From: a virus
Lineage: Duplodnaviria > Heunggongvirae > Uroviricota > Caudoviricetes
Length of the DNA: 64,000 nt
Virus record (IMG/VR): IMGVR_UViG_3300028805_000065
Span: 74,988-138,987 of that record
Direction: 5' to 3' (one strand)
A program made the position numbers and the translations under genes. Each line of letters opens with the position of its first letter. The first letter of the stretch is position 1. The notes below the pieces were generated by a model that searched no databases, was not told the origin of the DNA, and saw nothing but the letters and a program-made list of their open reading frames with translations. Of the stretch, positions 7,659 to 47,247 are shown piece after piece.

Positions 7659-9515
7659 CTACTTTAATTTTGGACGTTTACTAAATAAGAAACTCTTATG
7701 CGATTCGTCCTCTCGCTTTTTATTAACTATCTGACTTCGCCTCATCGTAGATAAAGAATATCCAAGCATACATAATGTATACGAAGCGTCATCATGCATT
7801 TTATTTTGCTTTTCTTTTGCTAATTCATAAGTAACACCGCCATTGGCAGAATCATATCTTACAATATATGACAACTGCGTTTTGCCCAATTCAATTGTCT
7901 GGAGCGCAACTTTTTCTTCATTCGTAAGAAACACCTGTTTAAACTCGCCGTTCTTATCATTTTCATCACCAACAAGTAAATAGTCCTTACCATCATAAGA
8001 TGTAAACTTGAAAACGTTTTGCTTTATCATTTTTGCTAATGCGTCATACATTATGGTTTTCATCTTCTTCGGTTCACGCAATCTTACAATTGGTTTATTG
8101 TTTGGATATCTTTTTCTAGCGCTTTCATAGGCGCTATGTTCTGGATCTATAATGCCAATGTGTTCAACGCCTTTTTTATCTTTAAAGGGAAGTAGTAATT
8201 GGTCTGCTATAGCAGAAACACCACCACCACCACTACCAGCATCGATATTAAACTCAATAATATTCTCCCAGTCTTCGGCTTCACCATTAAAATCAATCAT
8301 CAGTTGTCTGATTATTTTTAACTGCTCAACCATATCAAGTGGTGCTTTTCTAGTAGAAGTTTTATCAACCATCTCTTTTGAATAAACAATCTTAAATATA
8401 ATATTCTTGTGAGACTTTCTATCCTTATTTGGCTCTTCAATTCTCTCGGCAATAGTAAGAACAGAACCGTCAAAATTACGAGCTGGGTCATATGAAAATA
8501 CAAACTTTCTTTTGCCAGTATCATTAAACAATACTGGTTTTCTGTATTCACTATTCCTCATAATCTCGCCCATCTCAACAAGCGCATCCTTGCCACCGCC
8601 TTGCCTAAACTTATTAAACAACTCTCTATCTGCGGCATCTGGATTGTCTTCAATATCCTTTTGAATTCGTGCCTCTGATAAATGAGATTTAATCTTGTTA
8701 CCATTAATGGTAGAATGATTTAGTACATCATATGCATCAATGTCACAAACAAAATATCTGTCATCACCTATAAGCATTTTTTCAAAAAACAATTTATATT
8801 TTTCAAAATATGGAGTATCCACTGAAGAAGCAGAAGATGTGTATAAAAGTTGAATAGGCACTTGTGGCGGTTTAGTATAGACAACACTTTGGGTTGATGT
8901 CGAGAAACTTGAATCAACGTTTGCGAAGTTTTCAATAACCGATAACGATTCCGCATCTTTCCATCCAGTTTCGTTAAACCAAACGCCACCTCTTTTACCT
9001 CTGATTGTTTCAAGGTTAGAAGAGAGGGCTTGGCACTCTGAGTTATTAAAAAGTCTAAAGTGCGCTGGTGGTGATTGAATAAAACCAGTCTCAGAGTTCG
9101 ACCCAGTTTTATCTACCTCTCTAGCAAATAAATCAGTAAGAGAAGCAAATGTGGGTATCCGCTTATAAGCAATATCACGCATTTTGTTCATTGTATCAAC
9201 AGACTGCGCATATGCATTACAAGAAATGTGTAGATGATAATCGGGTATTAGTAGCAACTTTGTCATATACATAACAGATCCTGTTGTATCTTTACCCGTA
9301 CCTCGACAGCAAAGCCACAGGCAGAAAGGTCGCCACCAACTTTCTTGGAAGATATATCTTTGAAAATCAATCATTTGAGTTCCAAAGATTTCTTCCGCAA
9401 ACCGCACAGGGTTCATGCGCCCCCAATTTGTAATATCAGCCCACTTCTGATATTCCTCAATTTTTTTCTGAGATAATTCTATCTCAGTAGGCGGTACAAA
9501 AATTTCTACACTCAA
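7659..9515 (-). CDS. terL: terminase large subunit (618 aa)
   Basis: N-terminal P-loop-like 'CCRGTGKDTTGS' ATPase motif; size; lies upstream of portal in the head module. Confidence 0.55.
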   Translation of the reverse strand: MSVEIFVPPTEIELSQKKIEEYQKWADITNWGRMNPVRFAEEIFGTQMIDFQRYIFQESWWRPFCLWLCCRGTGKDTTGSVMYMTKLLLIPDYHLHISCNAYAQSVDTMNKMRDIAYKRIPTFASLTDLFAREVDKTGSNSETGFIQSPPAHFRLFNNSECQALSSNLETIRGKRGGVWFNETGWKDAESLSVIENFANVDSSFSTSTQSVVYTKPPQVPIQLLYTSSASSVDTPYFEKYKLFFEKMLIGDDRYFVCDIDAYDVLNHSTINGNKIKSHLSEARIQKDIEDNPDAADRELFNKFRQGGGKDALVEMGEIMRNSEYRKPVLFNDTGKRKFVFSYDPARNFDGSVLTIAERIEEPNKDRKSHKNIIFKIVYSKEMVDKTSTRKAPLDMVEQLKIIRQLMIDFNGEAEDWENIIEFNIDAGSGGGGVSAIADQLLLPFKDKKGVEHIGIIDPEHSAYESARKRYPNNKPIVRLREPKKMKTIMYDALAKMIKQNVFKFTSYDGKDYLLVGDENDKNGEFKQVFLTNEEKVALQTIELGKTQLSYIVRYDSANGGVTYELAKEKQNKMHDDASYTLCMLGYSLSTMRRSQIVNKKREDESHKSFLFSKRPKLK

Positions 9516-10639
9516 TCTTTTTCACCGCCATGTTCAAGAAAGAGAACTTCATTACTAAGCTGTCTGTTCTCTTCCCGTAATCTATCTAGTTCATTCGTCA
9601 TATCTTGAATCATTTCTCGCTGATTCTTTATGACCCTAGTATAGTCGTTCTCATCAAGCTGAAGTTGTTCCATAATGCTTTGGAAACTAAGGTCAGCCGT
9701 TTGCTTAATTGATTCACAAGTCTTAATGTCGAAAAGATTTACACGAGATGGGTCAAACCCATTCTCGTACATCTCTCTAATTTTATCAGACATTGTCCCT
9801 TGCCCGGCACGTATATTTCTATTCCACTGACTTGAAATATTATTATCTTTAGCTAGATTAGTGATTGTGTCTAACGCCTGTTTTTTAGAAGCCATTAAAT
9901 TTTTTAGTCTAGCATCATCAATCTCATAATCGTTTGATATTTTATTTATTTCCTCATCAAGCTTCTTTATCTGTAAGAATGTTTTTACCATGCTTACACA
10001 ACACATCATCTTATGACCATCCTCAGAAATTCCCTCTGTATCGCAATAACCGCTTAAAGCATTATAGCAATACTTCCTATCCATAACGGTTGCCTCTATC
10101 ATATCCTCAAGAGGGTCATATCCATATGTTTCTATTACATAACGCCTGTTCTTTTCATCTTTGTCATCCCATGTGACCTCTAAAGGTTTCACAACTGGCG
10201 GAGACATTTCACCGGGTAATGTGCCATGTTTCTCAGCAATGATATTGGTTCTAGATAACTCGCCGTCAAATATGCTATCAATAAAAGTTTTATTTTTCCA
10301 TTGAGTAGTATTGTTCACAATTCTTGAATACATACCCGGAGTATATTGCTGTGCGTTTTTTGCAAGTGAAGCAAATGCGTCACTACTAAAATACCAGTCC
10401 ATATAATGACATATGACTTTCATAGCATATTCTTCCGACTTATATCTATCAGCTATAACAGACTTAAACTTATCAATACACGTTTTACAAATAGGGGCGT
10501 AACCACTATTAGCCAGCCAAAGAGGAGACTTACTTGACGACTTATAAAAATTGCCAGTCAATGCAGTATATTCCATACCACATGACACGCACTTATATAT
10601 ATTTTTGTTACTCTTCCGTGAATTCATCTTTACTGGCAT
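9512..10639 (-). CDS. hypothetical protein with N-terminal CxxC zinc finger and C-terminal coiled coil (375 aa); small terminase candidate
   Basis: Immediately upstream of terL with 4-nt overlap; 'CVSCG...C..C' motif; heptad-like C-terminus. Confidence 0.35.
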   Translation of the reverse strand: MPVKMNSRKSNKNIYKCVSCGMEYTALTGNFYKSSSKSPLWLANSGYAPICKTCIDKFKSVIADRYKSEEYAMKVICHYMDWYFSSDAFASLAKNAQQYTPGMYSRIVNNTTQWKNKTFIDSIFDGELSRTNIIAEKHGTLPGEMSPPVVKPLEVTWDDKDEKNRRYVIETYGYDPLEDMIEATVMDRKYCYNALSGYCDTEGISEDGHKMMCCVSMVKTFLQIKKLDEEINKISNDYEIDDARLKNLMASKKQALDTITNLAKDNNISSQWNRNIRAGQGTMSDKIREMYENGFDPSRVNLFDIKTCESIKQTADLSFQSIMEQLQLDENDYTRVIKNQREMIQDMTNELDRLREENRQLSNEVLFLEHGGEKD

Positions 10640-11517: not shown

Positions 11518-12753
11518 TTAACTCCTAAAATAAATCGGATAGTATGCTTTTAAACCATTGTCATCTACAACACACACAAGTTGACTTGCGTTACCACTTA
11601 ATCTTTTTTCAACAGTGAAATCATCACCACTTCCTGCAAGAGATCCACCTCTAATCATTTTCACTTTATTTACTTCATCGACTGCGATTGTGTGCAAATG
11701 ACCAGTAAACCAAGCCTCAGGAAATTCACGAATCATTGAAATTAATTTCTGTACATCTCCCTTATTGAACCCATCATAATCACCATGCGTGGCAACATAG
11801 GATTTTCCTCTAACATTAAAAAGAGCAATTGATGTATCAATATCATTCTCAATTACATGAAAGTTCTCAACGTTATAAAGGCTCAGACCAACAGCCCATG
11901 AAATTAAGTCATCAAGTCTGTCGTCGTGCATAGCATTATCTTTGTTTGGTGTCAAACGTGAATGATTGCCACTAACAGATATAAAATTTACATTATTAAA
12001 ATGCTGAGAAAGTTTATAACAAAAATTGCATATAATCTCGGTAGCAATTTTTACTTGGTCAACAACATTCTCTCTGTTAGTAACCTGAATGGTCTTGTGA
12101 ATAATACCACTGATCTGATCGCCTAAAGAAAGCACATAGCAATTCTCTGAATTATGCATCTTTTGTAATTCAATGACATTTGATAACAATTCAGACATTC
12201 TCTCAATCGCAATATCAGTATCAAATCTTCCGAACTTATTATTAAACGTAGCGCCGATATGAAGATCACTCAACAAAACAATAATATCGTTATCGGATGT
12301 AAATGTGTCTACATGATGATTTGGAAATTGTATATTTCCAATAGATACAAGAGAGTCAGAGAGTTTATCCAACATATCCTCGGCTCGTGCGTCGGCATAA
12401 TTCTGCTTACTCCAAGCACGTCTCTCATCTCTTAACTTTACCTTTTCGCGTTCTGCCTCTCTTTTAGATGCATTAAGTTTATTAAGATATTCATCTTCAC
12501 TAAACTTGTTGAAGACACCGCTTTCGTAAAACTTCTTTGCCTGTTCATATGGTTTACGATATGCGCTTGAGGTTCTGTATTCAGACTCGTCGCTCCTGAA
12601 ATAAAAGTTTATCAGATAAGCAATGTCATCCCATGTGCCATCATAATTACCATTATCTTTAGCCTGACCAATAGACCAAAGATAGGAGAGTTCACCTTGC
12701 CCCTCTATGGGCTTTGTGTCAAACACGGTTTTTTCTCCTTGCCAAATCCTCAC
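11518..12753 (-). CDS. calcineurin-like metallophosphoesterase (411 aa)
   Basis: Ordered motifs: 'LSDLHIG' (D-x-H), 'GDQISG' (GDxxD), 'GNHS' (GNH), 'THGDY', 'GHLH' (GHxH); N-terminal coiled-coil region. Confidence 0.6.
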   Translation of the reverse strand: MRIWQGEKTVFDTKPIEGQGELSYLWSIGQAKDNGNYDGTWDDIAYLINFYFRSDESEYRTSSAYRKPYEQAKKFYESGVFNKFSEDEYLNKLNASKREAEREKVKLRDERRAWSKQNYADARAEDMLDKLSDSLVSIGNIQFPNHHVDTFTSDNDIIVLLSDLHIGATFNNKFGRFDTDIAIERMSELLSNVIELQKMHNSENCYVLSLGDQISGIIHKTIQVTNRENVVDQVKIATEIICNFCYKLSQHFNNVNFISVSGNHSRLTPNKDNAMHDDRLDDLISWAVGLSLYNVENFHVIENDIDTSIALFNVRGKSYVATHGDYDGFNKGDVQKLISMIREFPEAWFTGHLHTIAVDEVNKVKMIRGGSLAGSGDDFTVEKRLSGNASQLVCVVDDNGLKAYYPIYFRS

Positions 12754-17619: not shown

Positions 17620-17756
17620 CAACAAAAAATTTATAAAAAGTGCTAAAACACCCCGGATTTCGGAAGCTGTCTCCATATAATGGACGAATTTTAATGGCAG
17701 TTTTGCCCATAAATAAAGGATTTTTCAAAATAGGTTGCGGTAAAAAATAGTAAAAA

Positions 17757-20420
17757 TCAACAAAAATTGGATAAAAACTTTGTGCTATCTGTCTTATAAA
17801 GTAAATTAAGTATCTTTATTCCATACTTCCTTGCAGACTTAATTGCGGCATTTTTATAATTGCCACTAATATTTAAACCTAACGAATACTCTATAAGTTT
17901 GTTTATTGTTGCTGGGTTCTTTGTTCTTATCTTCCCAATTTCGTCTGAATAATATTTTGCCTTTAGAGATAATTGCTCTTTAAAATTATCATCTACAGAA
18001 TATACTGGTTTTGTTACGGTTTGAATCCAATCATCATATTCCTTTGCAAGTGTTATTATCTTTGATACATGCCTATATTCTGGTTTACCATTTATCTTTA
18101 TAAAAAACTTCTCAGTAGGTATCGTATTTGTACTTGATATATTCTGAATTTTATCAAGCCTTTCCTCAACCCAATTCATCGGACAGATGAGAGACGGATC
18201 TACTCTGTCTCTTAACTTTTTCTTGCTTCTATTAATTTCAGAAAATGGCAACTCTTTACCGTTCTTTGTGTACGGGATTGGACGTGTATACTTCATAAAA
18301 AGTGGGAAGTCATATTTCTTTTCCTTTAAAGCCCCGTCCTCAAATGTCATAATAGTCCTATGCATACAATCTTGTTGACCAATGCGCTTAATTTCATCCA
18401 TTCCAGAAATTTCGTACTCTCTCTTGCACCCATCGATTATCAGCTGTGCTACAACAGATAGCACAATAAAATCATCTTCTAATTGAAGCGACAGTCTTTC
18501 ATCACGCTCATCGTCTTCCTTTTGCATTTCTGTAAAGAAATAAGATATGGCAAGCATTGCAAGATTTGAACTCCATCCTATTCCAAGCCTTGCCTTACTC
18601 ATTTTATTATCCATCTCTGCGTATGCTTCTGGTGTATTGTCGTAAGATATACCGCTTTCGTTAAGAGCATTGACAATAGTTGGAAATCTCTTATAACATC
18701 TTTTTGCACATTCAACCATTACAGGATGGTTTGTTGCAAGAATAAAATCAGAATCAAAATCAGCACCATTCAATCTAGATTGAACGTCAGTACCAATGCA
18801 ATTTATCGCAACAATATTTTTAGAAAAATCAAAATACTTTTCCATTAAAGGGTGATGTACATTATGAAGATATGCCACGTTATTCATAGAGTTGTTTGGA
18901 GATCTGAAACCGCAAATATATTCACCGTCATCAAATCTTTTGGTATAACATTGAATTGTATCACGCTCTTGTATAAGCGTTTTATCCTTAGTCCAATCAT
19001 CACCAACTGCATGGAGTAGAAGAGCATATGGATTGCCACACAATGTAAGGTTATCGCCATTAACAAAAATTTTACCTTGTCTTAACTTGCCAACGTATGA
19101 GTTTATAATTTTTCTCTTTTCAAGTCTAAACCAAGTTGACTCACCAAACTCATGGTTATGATTGTACAAGTCTGCCATCATTTCATAATGATTCACATCG
19201 TTAGCATTTTTTCTTAAGAACTTTTCAAACTCATCGTTGTCTCTTTTTAAAAGTTCAACATACTCAACGCTGTCTTTGCATATCTCATTTATTTCTTCCT
19301 GAGTGGCTGGTAGCACATTAAGCATTTGATAACTCAGTTGCTGTTGATTACCTAATTTAGATGGATGGTCTGTTTTAACAACGCCCCACAAGCATCCATC
19401 TTTTCTAACTATTTTTGCCCAATAAGAATAAGGATTTCTTCCCATTAAATCAGAAAACTTTCGCCACTTAATAGCATTCTCTGTTGTTATGGCTTTGATA
19501 TTTTTTAATAACTTCTTTTTGCCAAAATAGTCTGTTACCTCATACGTATCGTAGTCATAACCATTTTTATCACACCAGTCTTTGAAAAACTTTTTGATAT
19601 GTGTTCTAAAGAAACACGCTTTAAAGAAATGATTTCTTAATAGCACCATGCCGTTAACATAAGATGGGAGAATAGAAGATTCGATAAGACCTTGACCGTC
19701 AAACAGTGTATTCTTTACATCCGTTTTTTCTCTATCAACAACGCACATCTTTTTCGTTTCGCCGTTGTCGTCTGTGTATTCCTCTGCGCGAACAATGTTT
19801 GCCATTGTTGTATAAAAACTATCCACGTCAGATACAAATAATATGTCGTCAACATCTATGTGTATTCTATCAATTATTGTTGACGTTGTGAGTGGGGCAT
19901 AAGCAGACATCTCAACGATTTTTGCGTTATGCAACGGCATCTTTTTTCCAAGCCCCATCGTTAACCATTTATACGCCCTATCATATAACTTCTCATCTAT
20001 AAACATTACAGAACCAATTTTAGCTTTTGCAGGAGTTCTAAACAACATCTTATAATGAATTTTCTGTGAAGACTTTATTGAACCATCTTTATTTTTGGTT
20101 TCCCATAAAATATCAACGCCCTCTTTATAATATTTAGTTCTGATATCGTCTCTGGACATTGGCGCATATTTTTCTTTATTGGCTTCTACTAATGCGAGTT
20201 TAGTTTTAAGACGCTCCACTAAATCAACGTTGTCGTCTTCAACTGCTTTATCAATCAGCATTGTGAGTCTCTTATGTTCATCTTCATAAGAACGGCTTCC
20301 AAAATCAAACGATAGACAAATAATCGATCTAGTGGACTCGCCTTTGTAAACATCTAAGCCGTGGTCTTTCATGTAATAAAGAAACAGGCTGTTGTTCAAC
20401 ATTGCATCTGTATAAGTCAA
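17757..20420 (-). CDS. putative YonO-like single-subunit RNA polymerase (887 aa) with a DxDxD 'NGADFDSD' catalytic-type motif
   Basis: Motif GIGTDVQSRLNGADFDSDFILATNHP (DFDSD encoded at 18747-18761) resembles the universal beta-prime NADFDGD Mg-binding loop retained in YonO-type, crAss-type and killer-plasmid single-chain RNAPs; size matches YonO (about 840 aa); no P-loop or polymerase A/B-family motifs. Confidence 0.45.
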   Translation of the reverse strand: MTYTDAMLNNSLFLYYMKDHGLDVYKGESTRSIICLSFDFGSRSYEDEHKRLTMLIDKAVEDDNVDLVERLKTKLALVEANKEKYAPMSRDDIRTKYYKEGVDILWETKNKDGSIKSSQKIHYKMLFRTPAKAKIGSVMFIDEKLYDRAYKWLTMGLGKKMPLHNAKIVEMSAYAPLTTSTIIDRIHIDVDDILFVSDVDSFYTTMANIVRAEEYTDDNGETKKMCVVDREKTDVKNTLFDGQGLIESSILPSYVNGMVLLRNHFFKACFFRTHIKKFFKDWCDKNGYDYDTYEVTDYFGKKKLLKNIKAITTENAIKWRKFSDLMGRNPYSYWAKIVRKDGCLWGVVKTDHPSKLGNQQQLSYQMLNVLPATQEEINEICKDSVEYVELLKRDNDEFEKFLRKNANDVNHYEMMADLYNHNHEFGESTWFRLEKRKIINSYVGKLRQGKIFVNGDNLTLCGNPYALLLHAVGDDWTKDKTLIQERDTIQCYTKRFDDGEYICGFRSPNNSMNNVAYLHNVHHPLMEKYFDFSKNIVAINCIGTDVQSRLNGADFDSDFILATNHPVMVECAKRCYKRFPTIVNALNESGISYDNTPEAYAEMDNKMSKARLGIGWSSNLAMLAISYFFTEMQKEDDERDERLSLQLEDDFIVLSVVAQLIIDGCKREYEISGMDEIKRIGQQDCMHRTIMTFEDGALKEKKYDFPLFMKYTRPIPYTKNGKELPFSEINRSKKKLRDRVDPSLICPMNWVEERLDKIQNISSTNTIPTEKFFIKINGKPEYRHVSKIITLAKEYDDWIQTVTKPVYSVDDNFKEQLSLKAKYYSDEIGKIRTKNPATINKLIEYSLGLNISGNYKNAAIKSARKYGIKILNLLYKTDSTKFLSNFC

Positions 20421-26915: not shown

Positions 26916-28166
26916 TCAGTCATCGCATGAATTTTTCTCAATCCAGTTTTCAAGCAACTCCCTCATCCTTTTAGAGGGTATGTATAATGTTATCGGTTCG
27001 TCATTTCTTATTGCCGATCTCCAGATGCACTGAATCATTTCCGATAAAGCAAACAGATCCTCGTTTGGTTCAATTCCTTTACTCCTAAAGAACTGCATTA
27101 TGTTTGTGTTGACGAATCTGTTGACGACATATGCCACAACATTTCTGTCCGCATAATTATTTGATGCTCTTGTGTTTGGTACGATATAACCACTTGAATA
27201 TCCCTTGCCACTCAACCTTTCTTTCGATTGCTTGAATGCCGCCCACAAACATTTAGACGACTTAGCTTTGGTGATGTTCTGAAAATAATTGTGTAAATTA
27301 CTTTTGACCTTTTCTATACCACTCTTATTTGATTCTCTGCCGTACCAGCTATATGAAAGACTGTAGTTGTCGTCGCCAATGGCGTTCATCTTATCGTTAT
27401 GAATAATATTGATAAGTTTCCTATAGTTTTTCTTTGTCTTATTCTCTTTTGATTTGTCGGCGGTAAGGGTAAAATCCGATGTATTGTTCCCAGTAATATA
27501 AAGGTTGGTATAATTCAAGCCAAAGTATTTGAAATAACACGACATGAAAGATCCCTCAAACAAATACGTCAAAACATAAAGTTCTTTAAAACACGTCAAA
27601 ATCTTTAAAGGAAAAATCCGTATCATAACACCGCCGTTGTAATATGCAAGTTCGCCGTTATCGGCTAATTCTTTTTGTGGCGTAAAAACACCCCAGTACT
27701 TATCATCTCTCCATTTAATAAGCCCGGAGTTTTCATCAACATCTACATAGGCTTTTAGCAGTGCGGCTGTGTCGTAAGTATTAAGTCCGTCTTCTCCGTC
27801 AAACTCATAAGAGTTCGCACAGTCTATAGTCTCATCGATGAAGCATATGTACCCAAACGACTTTATCAACTCGATCTCGGCATCAGTAAATTTCGCAAAC
27901 AGTTGATGTGTCGTGACGATGTTCTTTCCCTCTTCCAGTAAAGAATGAAGTCCATTCAGTTTTCTGCCCTCTTTGTAAAAAGGTTTCATAACACTCTTTG
28001 TGCTACATGAATCTTTTATTCTGTCTACCTCAGACAAATAGGGGGCTACATACATAAAGCGCACTGAGTCTGGTAATGAGTTAATGTAGTTAATGGCACT
28101 GGTTGTTTTGCCACTACCCATGACCGAATCAACAACATAGTATTTGCAATCAGTTACTTCATCCAA
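26916..28166 (-). CDS. P-loop NTPase (416 aa), possible helicase- or replication-associated ATPase
   Basis: Walker A 'VMGSGKTTSA' at residue 16 and Walker B 'ICFIDE'; first gene leftward of the origin-like control region. Confidence 0.5.
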   Translation of the reverse strand: MDEVTDCKYYVVDSVMGSGKTTSAINYINSLPDSVRFMYVAPYLSEVDRIKDSCSTKSVMKPFYKEGRKLNGLHSLLEEGKNIVTTHQLFAKFTDAEIELIKSFGYICFIDETIDCANSYEFDGEDGLNTYDTAALLKAYVDVDENSGLIKWRDDKYWGVFTPQKELADNGELAYYNGGVMIRIFPLKILTCFKELYVLTYLFEGSFMSCYFKYFGLNYTNLYITGNNTSDFTLTADKSKENKTKKNYRKLINIIHNDKMNAIGDDNYSLSYSWYGRESNKSGIEKVKSNLHNYFQNITKAKSSKCLWAAFKQSKERLSGKGYSSGYIVPNTRASNNYADRNVVAYVVNRFVNTNIMQFFRSKGIEPNEDLFALSEMIQCIWRSAIRNDEPITLYIPSKRMRELLENWIEKNSCDD

Positions 28167-28439
28167 AAAATTCCCCCTTTCGTAGTCTTGTTAAAAGTTA
28201 CTTCCGAAAAGGTTATAAAAAAAATCGTAAAAATCAGATATCCACTGCCGTAGGCAGTACCCATAGCACCTTGCTTTTAATCATTCATTTCAAAAAAAGT
28301 ACCACTTCGGTTCAAAAAAGTACTTTTTTTACAAAAAAAGCCTTTATTTATGGGCTTAATCGGGTGTGGGTCTAGTAAATATAAATAGAGAAAGAAAAAT
28401 CATAATGTTTAAGACATAAAAAAAGACTCACAACGTGAA

Positions 28440-28990
28440 GTTGTTCGTCTTCGCTAAAAGTTATTAAAGCCAGTAAGAGAAAAATCTTAATCGTAGATAG
28501 ATCGACAAAGGCAGAGGGTATAGATGACGTGTAGGCTGAGACATGAAAACGTAAATGTATCGACAACCTTGCCAGTAAAAGAAAAAGTGTAGGTTGCGAC
28601 TTGAGACCTGAATGTTACTCATACACTGTAGGATATCGATAACTTCCATGTTGAGAGGTTAAATTTTGGCTAACGCCATTTAAATTAAGGAGAGTCCATA
28701 ACAAATTGTGACCTAGAGTTCTCAGCCAATAAAATAAAAAACGACGTAAGTCGTAATTTTAAAAAAGTAAGAACACCCAGCCACTAATATAAGATGACGT
28801 GAGTCATCATTTTAATTTAGTAAGAGAGGCTGGTGGCAAACTGACAACAGGCAGGGTATCGATAACATTTATGTCAGAGAGAATCTGTAGGACTGTGTAT
28901 CTTTTTCTTTACAGGCTAACAGCATGACTGCCTTTACTTTATCGACACACTGAAGTTCAGTCGATACATGTTGGCTGTGATAATTAAATT
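28440..28990. repeat. iteron-like repeat field, TATCGA(C/T)AAC x5 or more, plus TGTAGG x4
   Basis: Copies at 28500, 28558, 28633, 28857, 28939 and inverted at 28960; one mismatch from the DnaA-box TTATCCACA; palindromes GATGACGTGAGTCATC and ACGACGTAAGTCGT nearby. Confidence 0.5.
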
Positions 28991-29639
28991 AAGGCTTACG
29001 CCTTTTTTCTTTAAAGGCTGAGAGTGGGAGAGTGGTTTTATTATAGACGTAGTGGGTGGGGCAGTAGTAGTGGACTACAACCACGGATATATTTTGTTAA
29101 AATCTTAACGATTTATTGTAAAAACTTAAAGTTTTGTTTAATTTTTCCTGTAAAAGTTTGTAGTTTAGTCTACGTTTTGCCAGTAAAAGTAAAAGTTTTT
29201 GTATTGTTTACAGGGTATTTGTTGGTAAAATCCGCAGTAAATTGCTGGTATTTTGGGGTAAAACTTGCAAAAACTGCGCAAAAAGCAGGGTATTTTAATG
29301 GTTTGTTTCAAGCTGTTTTATTGCGGTATTCACTGGGGATTTTGTTGAAGATCTGGAAGTATCGGGTTTTGGAGCGTTTTATAGGGAGAGTAGAGATGGG
29401 TGGGAGAGTAGTGGAGTGATGAAAATATGAGGGGTCGGAGAAGTGGTGTCGTTGGCGCCGGGGGCGGATCAGCGGACGCTTCATCGTTGTAAAGCGCCCC
29501 AGTGCTAAAGTCCTATTACCTACGGGTTTACCGGGTTTTACGCTTCCATCAAAAGCGTAAAATCGAACAGACGTTTGTTCCTGAGCCGGACGCCCCCTTC
29601 TGTGCTACTTCGTATAGCACAGCTATCACAAGTCGGTGG

Positions 29640-29990
29640 CGTTATAGTCAGATTGACTATTATGAGTAGTATTCGAAACTACATTGTACACAATTAAATG
29701 ATACTCGATTAAATCATCCTCAATATAACATCACACAATCAAATAAAACAAAATTAAATGATACACAATTCAATATCGTCAAATCAAATAGCGCATAAAC
29801 GAATTGAACGCAATTTAACATATACAAAATTAAATGACATGCGACTGAATAGCGCACTAATCAATTGAACACAATATAATTGACGCTTTAATCAATTTAG
29901 CGCAATTAGATTTAATGCAATATAATTGATCACCTGTAAATGATGTGCAATGTATTAATCATTACTACGTCACGTAGTATCAAAAACTAT
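29640..29990. repeat. AT-rich direct-repeat block (AATTAAATGA x3; AATAGCGCA...AATTGAAC(G/A)CAAT x2)
   Basis: Read directly from the sequence; no ORF; candidate DNA-unwinding element or origin. Confidence 0.45.
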
Positions 29991-30682
29991 GTTCAAATTA
30001 TCGCAACATAACGCAATAGAGTAGTAGTATTTGTAACAGTTTCGTAACATATAGGCGTTTTGCTCTTCGTCAAGTTGCACAAGATGCCGACTCCGAGCCA
30101 GTGACTGATCACCGCTTAAAGCCTCAAAAACCCTTTATTTAAAGGCTTTACAGCTCCTGGTTATGTTGCACAATAAAATGTCGAGTTATCGCCTCGGATG
30201 CTTAATAAAACCGTAAAGAGTGTCGAAAACATGTACAATTAGCGTTTACAGGCTCAAATTGTCAGACAATATCGTAAATTGTCAGATGCAAAATTTGGGG
30301 GGTTTCAGAGTCGCTAGGGTACACTTGTAAGGGTAAAAAAACCGACAGACGCATTTCAAACGATTTCGGTCGTTTTGCACAATAAAACGCCCGATTTTAA
30401 CGAAATAGCGTTCGTTTAAAGGCTTTTTCTGTCCAAAATATCGTAAAATGTTGTGCAAAATGCCAGTGAACGAATGTACGAAAAACGAAAAAACGTACAC
30501 GTTTATCCAAAAATCGTTTAAAAATTGCAAAAAATGGCGTTTTTTGAGGGCATCCGAACACGTCAAAACAGGCAGTTAGTACCACCTAATAAAATTGTGT
30601 TAAAATTTATATTATTGTGCCTGAAATAGACACAATTTAAAATAGAGCTGCTGACTTGATAAAATTTACACCTACCGGGTCA

Positions 30683-30750
30683 GTAGGCAATTTAATACAG
30701 TAAAGCGCTAAAACCTGGTCGAGCAGTAGGCAATTTAATACACTAAAGTA
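30683..30750. repeat. direct repeat CAGTAGGCAATTTAATACA(G/C)TAAAG x2
   Basis: Two copies 39 bp apart, immediately upstream of the 17-bp tandem array. Confidence 0.45.
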
Positions 30751-30845
30751 TTGAAGTGGTAGTAGTCGGGGGCTTCCGCCAGTCGGGGGCTTCCGCCAGT
30801 CGGGGGCTTCCGCCAGTCGGGGGCTTCCGCCAGTCGGGGGCTTCC
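30744..30845. repeat. 17-bp tandem repeat AGTCGGGGGCTTCCGCC, 5 perfect plus 1 degenerate copy
   Basis: Perfect head-to-tail copies from 30744 to 30828 and a degenerate sixth (AGTCGTGGGCTTCCGAC); the track ORF 30756-31091 merely translates the repeat. Confidence 0.8.
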
Positions 30846-31136
30846 GCCAGTCGTGGGCTTCCGACTCTATTTTTTTGCCTTTATAGGTACAAACACATTC
30901 AAAAACGCATTTCCAGACAATCGAAAAATGTGATATTTAAAGGCTTTTTTGACGTTTTAAAAGTGCGCTTTTTGTCGTGTTCCTTCTATATAATCCGAAA
31001 ATGGTATTGTGCAAAATATACAAATAAGATTGTGCAATATTACTACTTGAAATACCCTTTAATCGGAGGTATGATACGTACTGTCAGATGACGAAAGCCA
31101 CTGACACGGTAGCAGATAACTTTTTTGAAAAAGGTG

Positions 31137-31165
31137 TTGACACACCTAACAAGGTGTGGTAGGAT
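31137..31165 (+). promoter_or_regulatory. sigma-70-type promoter (TTGACA, 17 nt, TAGGAT; TGn extended) with spacer inverted repeat CACACCT/AGGTGTG
   Basis: Consensus -35 and a 17-nt spacer; first promoter of the rightward block, 40 nt upstream of the 31205 gene. Confidence 0.5.
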
Positions 31166-31204
31166 ACAGTTACATCAAACAAGCCACTTTATAGGAGGTA
31201 CGAA

Positions 31205-32044
31205 ATGCCTAAATATTCAAGGGACGAGCGTAAAGCTTATTACGCTGAAAATCCGTATACCGTAGTAAAGGGTAGCAATGGCTTTGCTGCTGTTGACCCT
31301 AAAACAGTTCGAAATGACCGTCTTAATTTTTCCGATGGTAACGAAAAAGTCGGACGTGTCGGATGTTTCAACCTTCCCGTAGCATATAGTTGTGTGCATG
31401 ACTGTGAGTGCTATCTGAATGGTGACTGTTATGCGTGTGGCGGTTGCTACAATTTCGCCGACAATCAAGCGATGTATTCAGAGAATTTTGCATACATTGT
31501 ATCCCATAGCATTGATGATTTTGTCAATACCGTAGTAGATGAGATCTATTACCGTGGATGGGGTCTCTTTAGATGGTTCACATGTGGGGATATCCTCAGT
31601 GTATCCATGTTTGACGGCATGGTTCAAATTGCGAAAAGATGTCCCGCCATCACTTTTTGGTTCTATACCAAAAAGTATAGGATGGTTAACGCATGGGTAT
31701 CCGCTCACGGCGTTGACGCTCTCCCCGACAACTTAACAATCATTTTCAGTCACTGGCGTAATAGGGATGGATCTTTTTATCCCATGCCTAACCCCTACAA
31801 TTTCCCGACATCCGAGTTTATCCCTGTCGGACATGAGGAGGAGGCTAAATTTGTGACACATGTTTGCCCTTGCAGTGACCCCGATGTTGTCAGCACTTGC
31901 GAAACCTGTGAACATCCCTGTTTCAAGCTCAAAAGGGGCGAGAGCATGGCACTGTTAGAGCATTCCACAAAAGCCACAAAAGAGCGTGATAAGGCACTCA
32001 AACAGGCTAAAAAGGCGCTCAAAAAAGCGAAAAAGAGCGCATGA
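31205..32044 (+). CDS. Cys-rich protein (279 aa) with a lysine-rich C-terminal tail
   Basis: Clusters 'CVHDCECYLNGDCYACGGCY' and 'CPCSDPDVVSTCETCEHPC'; KKALKKAKKSA tail; first early gene next to the origin-like region. Confidence 0.45.
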   Translation: MPKYSRDERKAYYAENPYTVVKGSNGFAAVDPKTVRNDRLNFSDGNEKVGRVGCFNLPVAYSCVHDCECYLNGDCYACGGCYNFADNQAMYSENFAYIVSHSIDDFVNTVVDEIYYRGWGLFRWFTCGDILSVSMFDGMVQIAKRCPAITFWFYTKKYRMVNAWVSAHGVDALPDNLTIIFSHWRNRDGSFYPMPNPYNFPTSEFIPVGHEEEAKFVTHVCPCSDPDVVSTCETCEHPCFKLKRGESMALLEHSTKATKERDKALKQAKKALKKAKKSA

Positions 32045-46251: not shown

Positions 46252-47247
46252 ATGAAGAGAGTGACCGATATCAAAAACGAGATGGTAAACAAAGTCTTCA
46301 CAGATGGCGAAATCGAATCTTTCATGTTCGATGCTGGATATATCCCCTTTGACAGCGATTTGTCGGATGGAGTAATTGCAGTCTTTACAGACAGCAAGAG
46401 GCTTGTGTATATCAAGGGGTTCAGAGATGTCGATGGTAACATTGAAGTCACTGATGTTACAAGCAATAACAACATCAATAACGGAGACCAGACAAAGGTC
46501 GAGCCGTTCCACACATACGAGGATCTTGAGGCTGTATTCAACTACTTCAAGGAACGTGGACAGTGGAATCACTGGTTGGCTTGCCGACTGATGGTTGGTC
46601 TCGGACGTAGAAGCGGAGACACGCTGAACCTCAGATGGTGTGACCTCTACAAAGATAAGGAATGCACAAAGTTTTATGACAGATGCATGAAACTTAAGGA
46701 AGAGAAGACTGGTAAGATTATTGCTCCGCACATCACAGAATACGTTCAGATGAGCGTAGAGGAGTATCTTAAAGCCACTGGGATTAATCCGTCTTCCAAG
46801 TATGTTCAGAAGATTTTTGAGGTCAAGACCCCTGCCGTCAGGGTTGCCGTTAAGAAAGCCGTTGAGGCAGTCGGCATTGAATATCCCATAAGTCTTCACA
46901 GTTTCCGCAAGACATACGGGAACTGGACGTACAAGATCCACCGCAATGAGGGAGTGTGCTTGGAAATCATCCGAGGGATGTTCGGTCATTCCGACACAGG
47001 AATTACTCGTCTGTACATTGACCAGACAAACGAGGATGCCAAAAGATACGCAAATGACTTATCCGAGTATCTTCTCAGAAAAGAAGATGGCACGGCAGTA
47101 GAAATCAACAACTCTCCCAATGTCACAATAAAGGCTGAGAGCCTTAGAGATATCCTGTCTCTTGTGTTTGATGCCGGAGTTAATGGCAAGGATAAGTTTG
47201 ATACTATTAACACTATGATTACAAGGATTGAGAGAGAGGGGTTCTAA
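46252..47247 (+). CDS. tyrosine recombinase/integrase (331 aa)
   Basis: Catalytic signature in order: 'GLGRRSGD' (Arg I), 'SLHSFRKT' (H-x-x-R), 'GHSDTGITRLY' (His/Tyr nucleophile region). Confidence 0.6.
   Translation: MKRVTDIKNEMVNKVFTDGEIESFMFDAGYIPFDSDLSDGVIAVFTDSKRLVYIKGFRDVDGNIEVTDVTSNNNINNGDQTKVEPFHTYEDLEAVFNYFKERGQWNHWLACRLMVGLGRRSGDTLNLRWCDLYKDKECTKFYDRCMKLKEEKTGKIIAPHITEYVQMSVEEYLKATGINPSSKYVQKIFEVKTPAVRVAVKKAVEAVGIEYPISLHSFRKTYGNWTYKIHRNEGVCLEIIRGMFGHSDTGITRLYIDQTNEDAKRYANDLSEYLLRKEDGTAVEINNSPNVTIKAESLRDILSLVFDAGVNGKDKFDTINTMITRIEREGF

Follow-up and report, generated by a model that had tools for sequence, protein, structure and literature searches.

The 64,000-nucleotide stretch of phage DNA analysed here (positions 74,988–138,987 of IMG/VR record IMGVR_UViG_3300028805_000065; below, the window) contains at 28167–31204 an interval, the gap, that separates a left block of genes lying entirely on the minus strand from a right block lying entirely on the plus strand. 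Placed between the late and the early gene blocks, the gap is a non-coding hub that is both conserved and modular. Its core region, at about 28.46–30.06 kb, appears to be a cis-acting DNA-processing site, most likely one for packaging initiation, and we tentatively take packaging initiation as the central function of the gap, a reading to which we give just short of an even chance. Judged from the homologues encoded in the left block (YonV, the large terminase TerL, and YonJ-like and YonO-like proteins), the source is a distant, uncultivated relative of SPbeta. The SPbeta-like phages are large, encode their own YonO-type RNA polymerase and serve as a model for arbitrium signalling; their packaging site (pac) has been mapped only by coverage, and their replication origin is not known in the literature.

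An earlier reading of the sequence, the original prediction, described a gene-free control region of 3 kb between divergent blocks and dismissed the open reading frames (ORFs) predicted within it as spurious. Both statements hold: none of these ORFs is conserved or has a credible ribosome-binding site (RBS), ARAGORN finds no tRNA in the gap, and Rfam 15, at the gathering thresholds and at E ≤ 5, returns only a chance-level match to an XIST repeat. In L003, L006, L007, L015, L016, L018, L020, L011 and L013 (L numbers denote the genomes and contigs compared), the gene callers of the source collections leave the corresponding gap empty. In translated comparison with its relatives (tblastx), the gap aligns in every one of the six frames, and stop codons interrupt nearly all of the alignments; a coding function was rejected on these two grounds. 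The repeats, in turn, exceed chance: repeated 10-mers cover 584 nt of the gap, as against 286 ± 106 nt in other 3-kb intervals and 148 ± 53 nt in Markov simulations, and many motifs of the gap are found nowhere else in the 64 kb. All six groups of repeat elements listed earlier exist, some with counts or coordinates that are corrected below, and the proposal of a cis-acting control region where two transcription blocks diverge is borne out.

Ten related metagenomic loci were reached via YonV homologues (YonV identity 48–94%). They form a close clade (77–94%; L006, L007/L008, L009, L010, L015, L016, L018 and L020) and a far clade (about 48%; L011/L012 and L013). In every locus that spans the region, a gene-free gap of 2.1–3.6 kb lies between YonV and a gene of the GP88 family; the "empty" interval of 2–3.5 kb in such phages is a conserved feature, and neither an assembly nor a gene-calling failure. 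The gap is modular, in that the conserved blocks listed here are separated by repeat arrays that differ by lineage but hold their positions.

28167–28604: conserved block, 75–85% identity in the close clade
29400–29690: conserved block, 73–85% identity in the close clade
29964–30057: conserved block, about 80% identity in L006, L007, L009 and L020
30528–30637: conserved block with no role assigned, 78–94% identity in L006, L007, L009 and L020
30856–31198: conserved block, 68–86% identity in the close clade

The stretches between the blocks cannot be aligned, and they hold arrays at the same relative positions with units that differ by lineage. The clade therewith offers a comparative dissection of a conserved segment of about 270 bp (29418–29690, the core), of the lineage-specific arrays that flank it and of their positions; the map yields defined fragments for binding of terminase, DnaA or regulators, and a defined site at which virome reads may be examined for termini.

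Short-read assemblies of these phages systematically break at the tandem arrays. The contigs L004, L005, L008 and L012 terminate within such arrays, and the N runs of the scaffolded assemblies fall exactly in repeat-bearing parts of the gap, in L016 and L018 at about 400 nt to the left of the core and in L013 in a GC-rich array; among the loci, contig ends sit in tandem arrays, as assembly breaks, and none sits in the core. L003, a metagenomic contig of 138.9 kb, is the same phage as the window, and over the 20.8 kb compared the two differ only by one substitution and by the copy number of a 17-mer array. A DNA similarity search of 50,697 phage records with the gap and the 20 kb around it gave no match, nor did a first scan of viral contigs with YonV peptides. 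Exact-pattern scans (the 17-mer array and two core patterns) matched one viral contig, L014, and nothing in GTDB genomes or JGI metagenomes, and therefore no host or prophage context was obtained.

The core region and the SPbeta packaging site

The core region comprises an oriented array of short motifs, a G/T-rich segment, the core itself and an A/T-rich segment of iterons.

28460–29010, plus strand: one-strand array of the short motifs TATCGAYAAC, TGTAGG/TRNAGGYT and GCCAGTAA
28558, 28634 and 28857, plus strand: three exact copies of TATCGAYAAC, the sole exact copies in the 64 kb
28530, 28588, 28627 and 28886, plus strand: four copies of TGTAGG/TRNAGGYT
28469 and 28571, plus strand: GCCAGTAA, with a third copy at 29179
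28741–28754, 28793–28808 and 28991–29004: small tetraloop palindromes
29020–29418, plus strand: G/T-rich, C-poor segment (G.28, T.36, C.09)
29024 and 29400, plus strand: pair of GTGGGAGAGT(G/A)GT
29418–29690: conserved GC-rich, inverted-repeat-rich core, with first letters GATGAAAATATGAGGGGTCGGAGAAGTGG
29536–29562, 29565–29580, 29600–29622, 29644–29660 and 29666–29682: five perfect or near-perfect palindromes of the core
29687–29960, plus strand: A/T-rich (27% GC), G-poor iteron segment
29687–29774, plus strand: 15-bp-period array of TACACAATTAAATGA, 5.9 copies, with further repeats to about 29906; the iteron segment also has 23-nt repeats
29666–29682 and 29974–29990: hairpin elements GTAGTATTCGAAACTAC and GTAGTATCAAAAACTAT, respectively, that bracket the iteron segment

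The core is conserved at 73–85% in all close relatives and is recognisable in the far clade. Both of its strands fold better than shuffled sequence (z −3.0 and −2.8), and an RNAalifold consensus of seven sequences (about 278 columns) gives −21.6 and −19.4 kcal/mol on the two strands, with covariation terms of +0.64 and +0.86 that lend no support to an RNA structure. Because the folding is equal on both strands, covariation gives no support and Rfam holds no match, the core is read as a DNA site and not as an RNA. SPbeta and all ten relatives share one change of base composition across it: G-rich, C-poor DNA (G 0.29–0.40, C 0.04–0.15) occupies the 100 nt that precede the core, and G is scarce (0.03–0.13) at 200–400 nt past the core start. 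The G/T-skewed strand, the hairpin (29600–29622) and the two repeat copies (29024 and 29400) had all been described correctly in the original prediction, as had the presence of A/T-rich direct repeats within 29640–29990.

Throughout the close clade, a single hairpin element occurs twice, once on each side of the variable segment to the right of the core. The units found at this position are an 18/29-mer in L006, a 9/18-mer in L015, L016 and L018, and 22- and 32-mers in L011 and L013, and in all lineages these arrays are A/C-rich and G-poor on the plus strand. The conserved block 29964–30057, which contains GAGTAGTAGTATTTGTAAC (30019–30037), closes the variable segment. GAGTAGT occurs at 29406, 29664 and 30019, three of its seven plus-strand copies in the window.

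To the left, the motifs of 28460–29010 are enriched 5- to 10-fold and strand-biased in the window, with looser copies of TATCGAYAAC at 28500, 28940 and 28959. In L006 and L007 they are still in excess and on the same strand, despite diverged intervening sequence; TRNAGGYT, for instance, occurs 12 times on the plus strand of L007 where about one copy is expected, and every relative, as well as SPbeta, has CCWGTAAA on its plus strand. An oriented pattern of this kind looks like a protein-binding array, for which 28460–29010 is a candidate. The four copies of TGTAGG and the palindromes at 28741–28754 and 28793–28808 agree with the earlier description, which had also counted five or more iterons of TATCGA(C/T)AAC, two more at least than the exact copies present, and had placed them one mismatch from a DnaA box, a relation that is true of a single copy (TTATCGACA at 28939) and of none of the others.

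We read the core region as a probable packaging site because the equivalent divergent intergenic region of SPbeta holds the mapped pac. In SPbeta, the opening point of the genome and pac lie between yonP and yonR, a location established by restriction mapping and, for six phages, by read coverage; packaging proceeds towards the late genes, and a sharp-edged fragment of about 250 bp has been proposed to contain pac. The order TerL, YonJ-like, YonO-like, YonV of the late block is syntenic with SPbeta, and by this synteny the gap is the counterpart of the yonP|yonR region. Like that region, it is divergent and non-coding, borders the late block with the terminase, YonJ and YonO genes, and has YonV nearby. 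In both phages, a G-rich, C-poor run is followed by an inverted-repeat-rich segment of about 250–270 bp and then by G-poor DNA, and short motifs of the TATCG(A/T)AA type and CCAGTAAA lie on the left. The purine-rich run that precedes the SPbeta fragment ends in ...GGAAAATGAAAATTTGGATAGGGTGTGGAAATGGAAGT and resembles the start of the window core. On these grounds, the core at 29418–29690 is a candidate counterpart of the pac fragment of about 250 bp. The two regions also differ. That of SPbeta measures 0.95 kb, as against 3 kb here, has no statistically detectable sequence homology to the gap, and lacks counterparts of the A/T-rich iteron segment, of the TTGYRCAA boxes described below and of the GC-rich arrays; YonV is on the opposite side and strand. 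The SPbeta master repressor MrpR/SroF binds the yonP|yonR region as well, at the yonP promoter, and the YonO late promoter is located elsewhere; no dispersed operator like SPBRE was found in the window. Experiments on SPbeta, the sole experimental evidence for such a place in a relative, thus point to repressor binding and the start of packaging, and not to replication.

Several results weigh against packaging. Profiles of the conserved core and of the 54 nt at its start give no nhmmer match at the SPbeta pac site, and therefore the link to SPbeta is positional and architectural only; the short resemblance ATGAAAAT..GGGT..GGA.A.TGG to SPbeta pac is not significant. The compositional pattern is symmetric under strand reversal, which leaves the orientation relative to SPbeta unfixed. 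A small terminase was not found. The core also lacks a conserved bracketing direct repeat like the GGRAATSGAAG pair of SPbeta; pairs of that quality are common by chance. Lastly, the DnaA-box-like repeats of the relatives suit an origin better than a pac.

The ends of the SPbeta fragment itself carry some marks of interest. In SPBc2 (L001), the fragment of about 251 bp is bracketed by the sole two copies of GG[AG]AAT[GC]GAAG in 25 kb (9255–9265 and 9507–9517), each of which ends at a fragment boundary, and position 1 of an independent record, BUCT083 (L021), is the exact left boundary of the fragment, in agreement with a pac at this place. The bracketing pair and the BUCT083 start suggest two site-specific cuts or a short terminal repeat in SPbeta, with the reservation that 11-mer pairs with two mismatches are common by chance. 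The record ends of Alicyclobacillus phage MMB025 were considered as a further clue to the terminus and are uninformative; because that genome is circularly permuted, they are arbitrary.

A packaging mechanism consistent with this arrangement can be proposed. The gap would act at the DNA level, between leftward late and structural genes and rightward early genes, and its edges carry transcription signals. Those on the left are the yonV leader and two terminator-like elements of the minus strand; those on the right are operator-like TTGYRCAA boxes and the first of 11 early promoters of the sigma-A type. Small-terminase oligomers would bind the oriented short-repeat arrays that flank the core, the large terminase would cut within the core or at its edge, and headful packaging would proceed leftward into the late genes. 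The early block adjoining the hub would then be packaged last and injected first, which is offered as a rationale and not as evidence. The lineage-specific arrays may serve as specificity or spacer modules, quick to evolve by slippage, with the 17-mer array a probably non-essential one among them.

Arrays on two flanks fit small-terminase binding at both sides with a cut in between, and in this respect the gap resembles the pac sites of SPP1 and P1, in which short-repeat arrays lie on both sides of a central segment. The SPP1 pac (pacL-pacC-pacR) is inside or next to the terminase genes and measures about 270 bp in total, whereas the window site is 19 kb from TerL and its repeat-bearing region extends over about 1.5 kb. 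Unlike P1, the window has no GATC or hexamer organisation; L020 and L009 have GATC-rich spacers further right. A series of small early genes with many copies of a sigma-A-type promoter, beside a presumed genome end, also recalls the host-takeover module of SPO1 and the pre-early region of T5. The modules of SPO1 and T5 lie inside long terminal repeats, whereas nothing in the window indicates such a repeat.

Signals at the two edges of the gap

On the left, the gap ends in the leader of the yonV-like gene and in terminator-like elements.

28167–28334, minus strand: conserved leader/upstream region of the yonV-like gene, 75–85% identity to all close relatives
28245–28257, minus strand: hairpin CTGCCGTAGGCAG in the yonV leader
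28289–28302 and 28311–28323, minus strand: two A-tract repeats TTCAAAAAA(A)GTAC, the same 21-nt repeat that Tandem Repeats Finder reports in L007, L009 and L020
28335–28357, minus strand: terminator-like element AAGCCCATAAATAAAGGCTTTTTTT, a member of the (A)TTTAAAGGCTTTTT motif family
28423–28451, minus strand: hairpin followed by a T-run, read from the sequence

No sigma-70-like promoter was found on the minus strand of 28167–28334. The hairpin and T-run at 28423–28451 likely form an intrinsic terminator for leftward transcripts, and L007 retains the hairpin with altered stem letters (GACTCGTGAC...GTCACTCGTC). Near copies of the element at 28335–28357 occur just after the YonO-like gene (17705–17725 in the window, and also in L011), and in either clade each gap holds three to four members of its (A)TTTAAAGGCTTTTT family.

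The right third of the gap is occupied by boxes, direct repeats and the promoters of the early block.

30075, 30166 and 30375 on the plus strand, 30451 on the minus strand: distal TTGCACAA boxes
30118–30149: palindrome AAAGCCT-N17-AGGCTTT
30257 and 30277: two copies of AATTGTCAGA
30268 and 30437: two copies of AATATCGTAAA
30681–30748, plus strand: 25-nt direct repeat CAGTAGGCAATTTAATACA(G/C)TAAAG, two copies (30681 and 30724) that are 96% identical, with xTAAAGxG motifs
30764–30863, plus strand: 17-mer tandem array of AGTCGGGGGCTTCCGCC, 5.9 copies, 98% match
30864–31204, plus strand: conserved early promoter region
30877–30894, plus strand: GCCTTTATAGGTACAAAC, conserved, directly downstream of the array position
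30936–30950, plus strand: TTTAAAGGCTTTTTT
31007 and 31030, plus strand: paired TTGTGCAA boxes
31047–31075, plus strand: promoter-like site TTGAAA-17-TATGAT
31137–31165, plus strand: early promoter TTGACA-17-TAGGAT, with an RBS preceding the ATG at 31205

The TTGCACAA and TTGTGCAA boxes share the form TTGYRCAA and are nearly exclusive to the gap. Their layout is kept in relatives, with the pair 170–200 bp upstream of the first early gene and the distal boxes in opposite orientation 0.75–0.95 kb off; in L006, L007, L015, L016 and L018 the distal boxes keep their positions. The layout looks like an operator arrangement. All four copies of TTGCACAAT are likewise confined to the gap. Among the repeats assigned earlier to 30100–30600, the two copies each of TTGCACAATAAAA (30166 and 30375) and AATTGTCAGA are in place; the four copies of TTAAAGGCT (29011, 30139, 30416 and 30937) are not all inside that interval.

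Further right, the repeat reported at 30683–30750 exists in two copies, as a 25-nt unit at 30681 and 30724, and relatives have three to five xTAAAGxGxTAAAGTG doublets at its position. The adjoining 17-mer array is equally real, at 30764–30863 and not at 30744–30845 as first placed, and its final copy together with a T-run resembles a terminator. L003 has four copies fewer, and the Logan contigs L004 and L005 break within the array. At the same spot, L007 and L008 have a 24-mer (2.9 copies) that shares GGCTTCCGCC, and in L011 and L013 the place is taken by GC-rich 10-, 30- and 40-mers over about 290 bp; L006, L009, L015–18 and L020 have no tandem array there and carry the xTAAAGxGxTAAAGTG doublets instead. 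Because its copy number varies and it is absent from close relatives, the 17-mer array is an expansion that evolves fast, rather than a conserved element. For the same reasons, and because no ParA or ParB is recognisable nearby, the suggestion of a partition site is not supported.

The promoter at 31137–31165 had been pointed out as the first early promoter, and it is indeed the first of a family: TTGACA-NN-CCAC-N7-GTGG-TANNAT occurs in 11 plus-strand copies between 31137 and 50124, where none is expected. The early block therefore begins at the right edge of the gap. We note that the spacer of the early promoter holds an inverted repeat, and this palindrome could be a candidate operator. The 11 promoters drive a series of small genes that resembles a host-takeover module.

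Alternative readings of the gap

The main rival to packaging is replication initiation, which could coexist with pac in the same hub and which we consider possible though rather doubtful. Here the A/T-rich iteron segment 29687–29960, bracketed by hairpins and bound by host DnaA and/or a phage initiator, would unwind, possibly aided by an R-loop from the G-rich rightward transcript of 29020–29418. The original prediction had suggested an origin from DnaA-like iterons, an AT-rich unwinding element and an adjacent P-loop ATPase, and had named cumulative GC skew as a check; the specific arguments do not stand. DnaA-like boxes (TTATCCACA, at most one mismatch) number 24 in the window against 23 expected, of which the gap has two and its A/T-rich segment none, and at this chance level the TATCGAYAAC iterons are no DnaA-box cluster. 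The ATPase is the YonV homologue, with an SF2 (superfamily 2) helicase fold, and corresponds to no known initiator or partition ATPase. The skew minimum does fall at the gap, but the skew turns exactly where gene orientation switches; the two are fully confounded, and the turn therefore says nothing on replication. What keeps an origin in consideration is the A/T-rich module, in which some relatives have DnaA-box-like repeats, every one of them on the plus strand: a perfect TTATCCACA beside TTATACACA in the equivalent segment of L007 (0.04 expected), three one-mismatch boxes in L006 (0.18 expected), and one strict and four relaxed boxes in L015, L016 and L018 (expectations across the relatives are 0.04–0.6). 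This enrichment represents one amplified unit per lineage, so the independent observations are few; L009 and L020 have no such repeats in the segment, and the window segment has no strict box and just two relaxed matches.

In architecture, the module is similar to iteron-type origins (lambda ori, P1 oriR and theta plasmids), which have direct repeats next to or within a very A/T-rich segment. At least three direct repeats (the 15-bp array of 5.9 copies and the 23-nt repeats) adjoin an A/T-rich segment suited to unwinding, which is among the three lowest-GC 250-nt intervals of the 64 kb, and the repeat sequence is lineage-specific, with DnaA-box-like units in some relatives, yet fixed in position, as expected under co-evolution with an initiator. 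In contrast to such origins, the array period (15, 18, 29, 9, 22 or 32 bp) is neither conserved nor in helical phase, and no cognate initiator gene is adjacent to the repeats or overlaps them. A gene with an SF2-helicase fold does adjoin the gap, but no recognisable initiator (Rep, DnaA-like or O-like) does so; the flanking YonV and GP88-family genes have no Rep, initiator or ParA/ParB match in Pfam, PHROGs, NCBIfam or PDB. SPbeta provides no precedent, since its replication is unstudied in the literature.

Purely transcriptional control, by operators for early-to-late or lysis–lysogeny regulators together with insulating terminators and with neither pac nor origin, is an improbable account of the gap. 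The TTGYRCAA boxes, almost restricted to the gap and kept in arrangement, and the terminator-like hairpins on both strands would belong to such a system, and the regulator could perhaps be the 331-aa tyrosine-recombinase-like protein encoded at 46252–47247, acting like SroF/MrpR, given that MrpR binds the equivalent intergenic region of SPbeta. But the regulation of two promoters does not need 2–3.5 kb, the other ten early promoters function without such a region, and the most conserved block (29418–29690) is far from any promoter. Moreover, unlike the dispersed SPBRE of SPbeta, no long operator is common to the gap and other intergenic regions of the window. The remaining two explanations, RNA genes and neutral DNA, are both unlikely. 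Transcripts of the conserved GC-rich block or of the GC-rich arrays might act as structured RNAs or as sponges for a protein or the ribosome, which we consider to have only a slight chance of being correct. Terminator-like hairpins with GNRA-type loops, the z score of about −3 for the core, the plus-strand array RNA (z −3.7) ending in a hairpin and U-run, and GGA-containing units recurring in three lineages (on the minus strand, GGC-GGAA-GCC in the window, and GGGAGGC and TGGAGGC in L011 and L013) favour this view. They are countered by the absence of any Rfam family even at E ≤ 5, by the weak RNAalifold energies with a positive covariation term on both strands, and by the equal folding of the two strands, which points to DNA palindromes; the arrays of L007 and L011 fold no better than shuffles, several close relatives lack the arrays, and no convincing promoter precedes the elements. 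A structured RNA is not supported for the core, and array folding is inconsistent between lineages.

Least probable by far is that the gap is mostly neutral, a decayed gene remnant with slippage-prone repeats in which only the flanking promoters function. The 17-mer copy number differs between near-identical genomes, arrays differ or are absent among close relatives, and gap length ranges over 2.1–3.6 kb, all of which neutrality would accommodate. It would not explain why five blocks stay 73–94% identical while YonV protein identity drops to 77–79%, why the gap is still present in the far clade, where YonV identity is a mere 48%, or why motif arrays are maintained at the motif level in one orientation, and compact phage genomes rarely retain 3 kb of junk. 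A more elaborate proposal, to which we attach a small probability, would make the hub a combined packaging-and-replication module with an exchangeable specificity cassette (the iteron segment between the GTAGTAT...ACTAC hairpins), by the swap of which SPbeta-like phages could re-target an initiator or terminase; in a variant, the GC-rich arrays would give rise to GGA-motif RNAs that sponge a host RNA-binding protein.

Neighbouring genes and further observations

The left-block genes on which the relationship to SPbeta is based are the following.

7659–9272, minus strand: TerL (large terminase), in the left/late block
11518–12726, minus strand: YonJ-like exonuclease, in the left block
17757–20420, minus strand: YonO-like RNA polymerase, 887 aa, 23% identity to SPbeta YonO over 544 residues (E 6e-9)
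26916–28166, minus strand: YonV homologue, 416 aa, 40% identical to SPbeta YonV across 96% of its length

Homologues of the window YonV contain the Pfam domain YonV_C. The AlphaFold model of the protein (predicted local distance difference test score, pLDDT, of 91) has the two-RecA-domain fold of SF2 helicases and is closest to XPD/DinG and RecQ/WRN; by this model, YonV is predicted to be neither an AAA+ initiator nor a ParA. Sequence searches of PDB and NCBIfam with YonV and the GP88-family gene were empty. The YonV family has no annotated function and more than 2,500 homologues in metagenomes. The YonO-like gene of L009 (8995–12557) appears split into ORFs of 552 and 320 aa with a 152-aa HNH_3 ORF in between, which may reflect insertion of a homing endonuclease or intron; in the other relatives the gene is a single ORF of 881–899 aa.

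The right block opens at the ATG at 31205 with the GP88-family Cys-rich protein and continues as a series of small genes. The block also includes tRNAs and genes for an RNA ligase, a tyrosine-recombinase-like protein and a protein whose N-terminus is sigma-like. The tyrosine-recombinase-like protein (46252–47247, plus strand, 331 aa) lies within the early block and could be an integrase or a putative recombinase-fold repressor of the SroF/MrpR type. In the 569-aa protein encoded at 50445–52154 (plus strand), the N-terminal 170 residues resemble sigma-70 factors of the extracytoplasmic function (ECF) type, slightly under the curated cut-off, and are fused to a larger domain without assigned function. 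At 55920–55992, ARAGORN calls a tRNA of undetermined identity with a four-base anticodon (ggcg), and a 106-nt Rfam tRNA match at 56227–56332, not called by ARAGORN, may represent a tRNA that contains an intron or a long arm.

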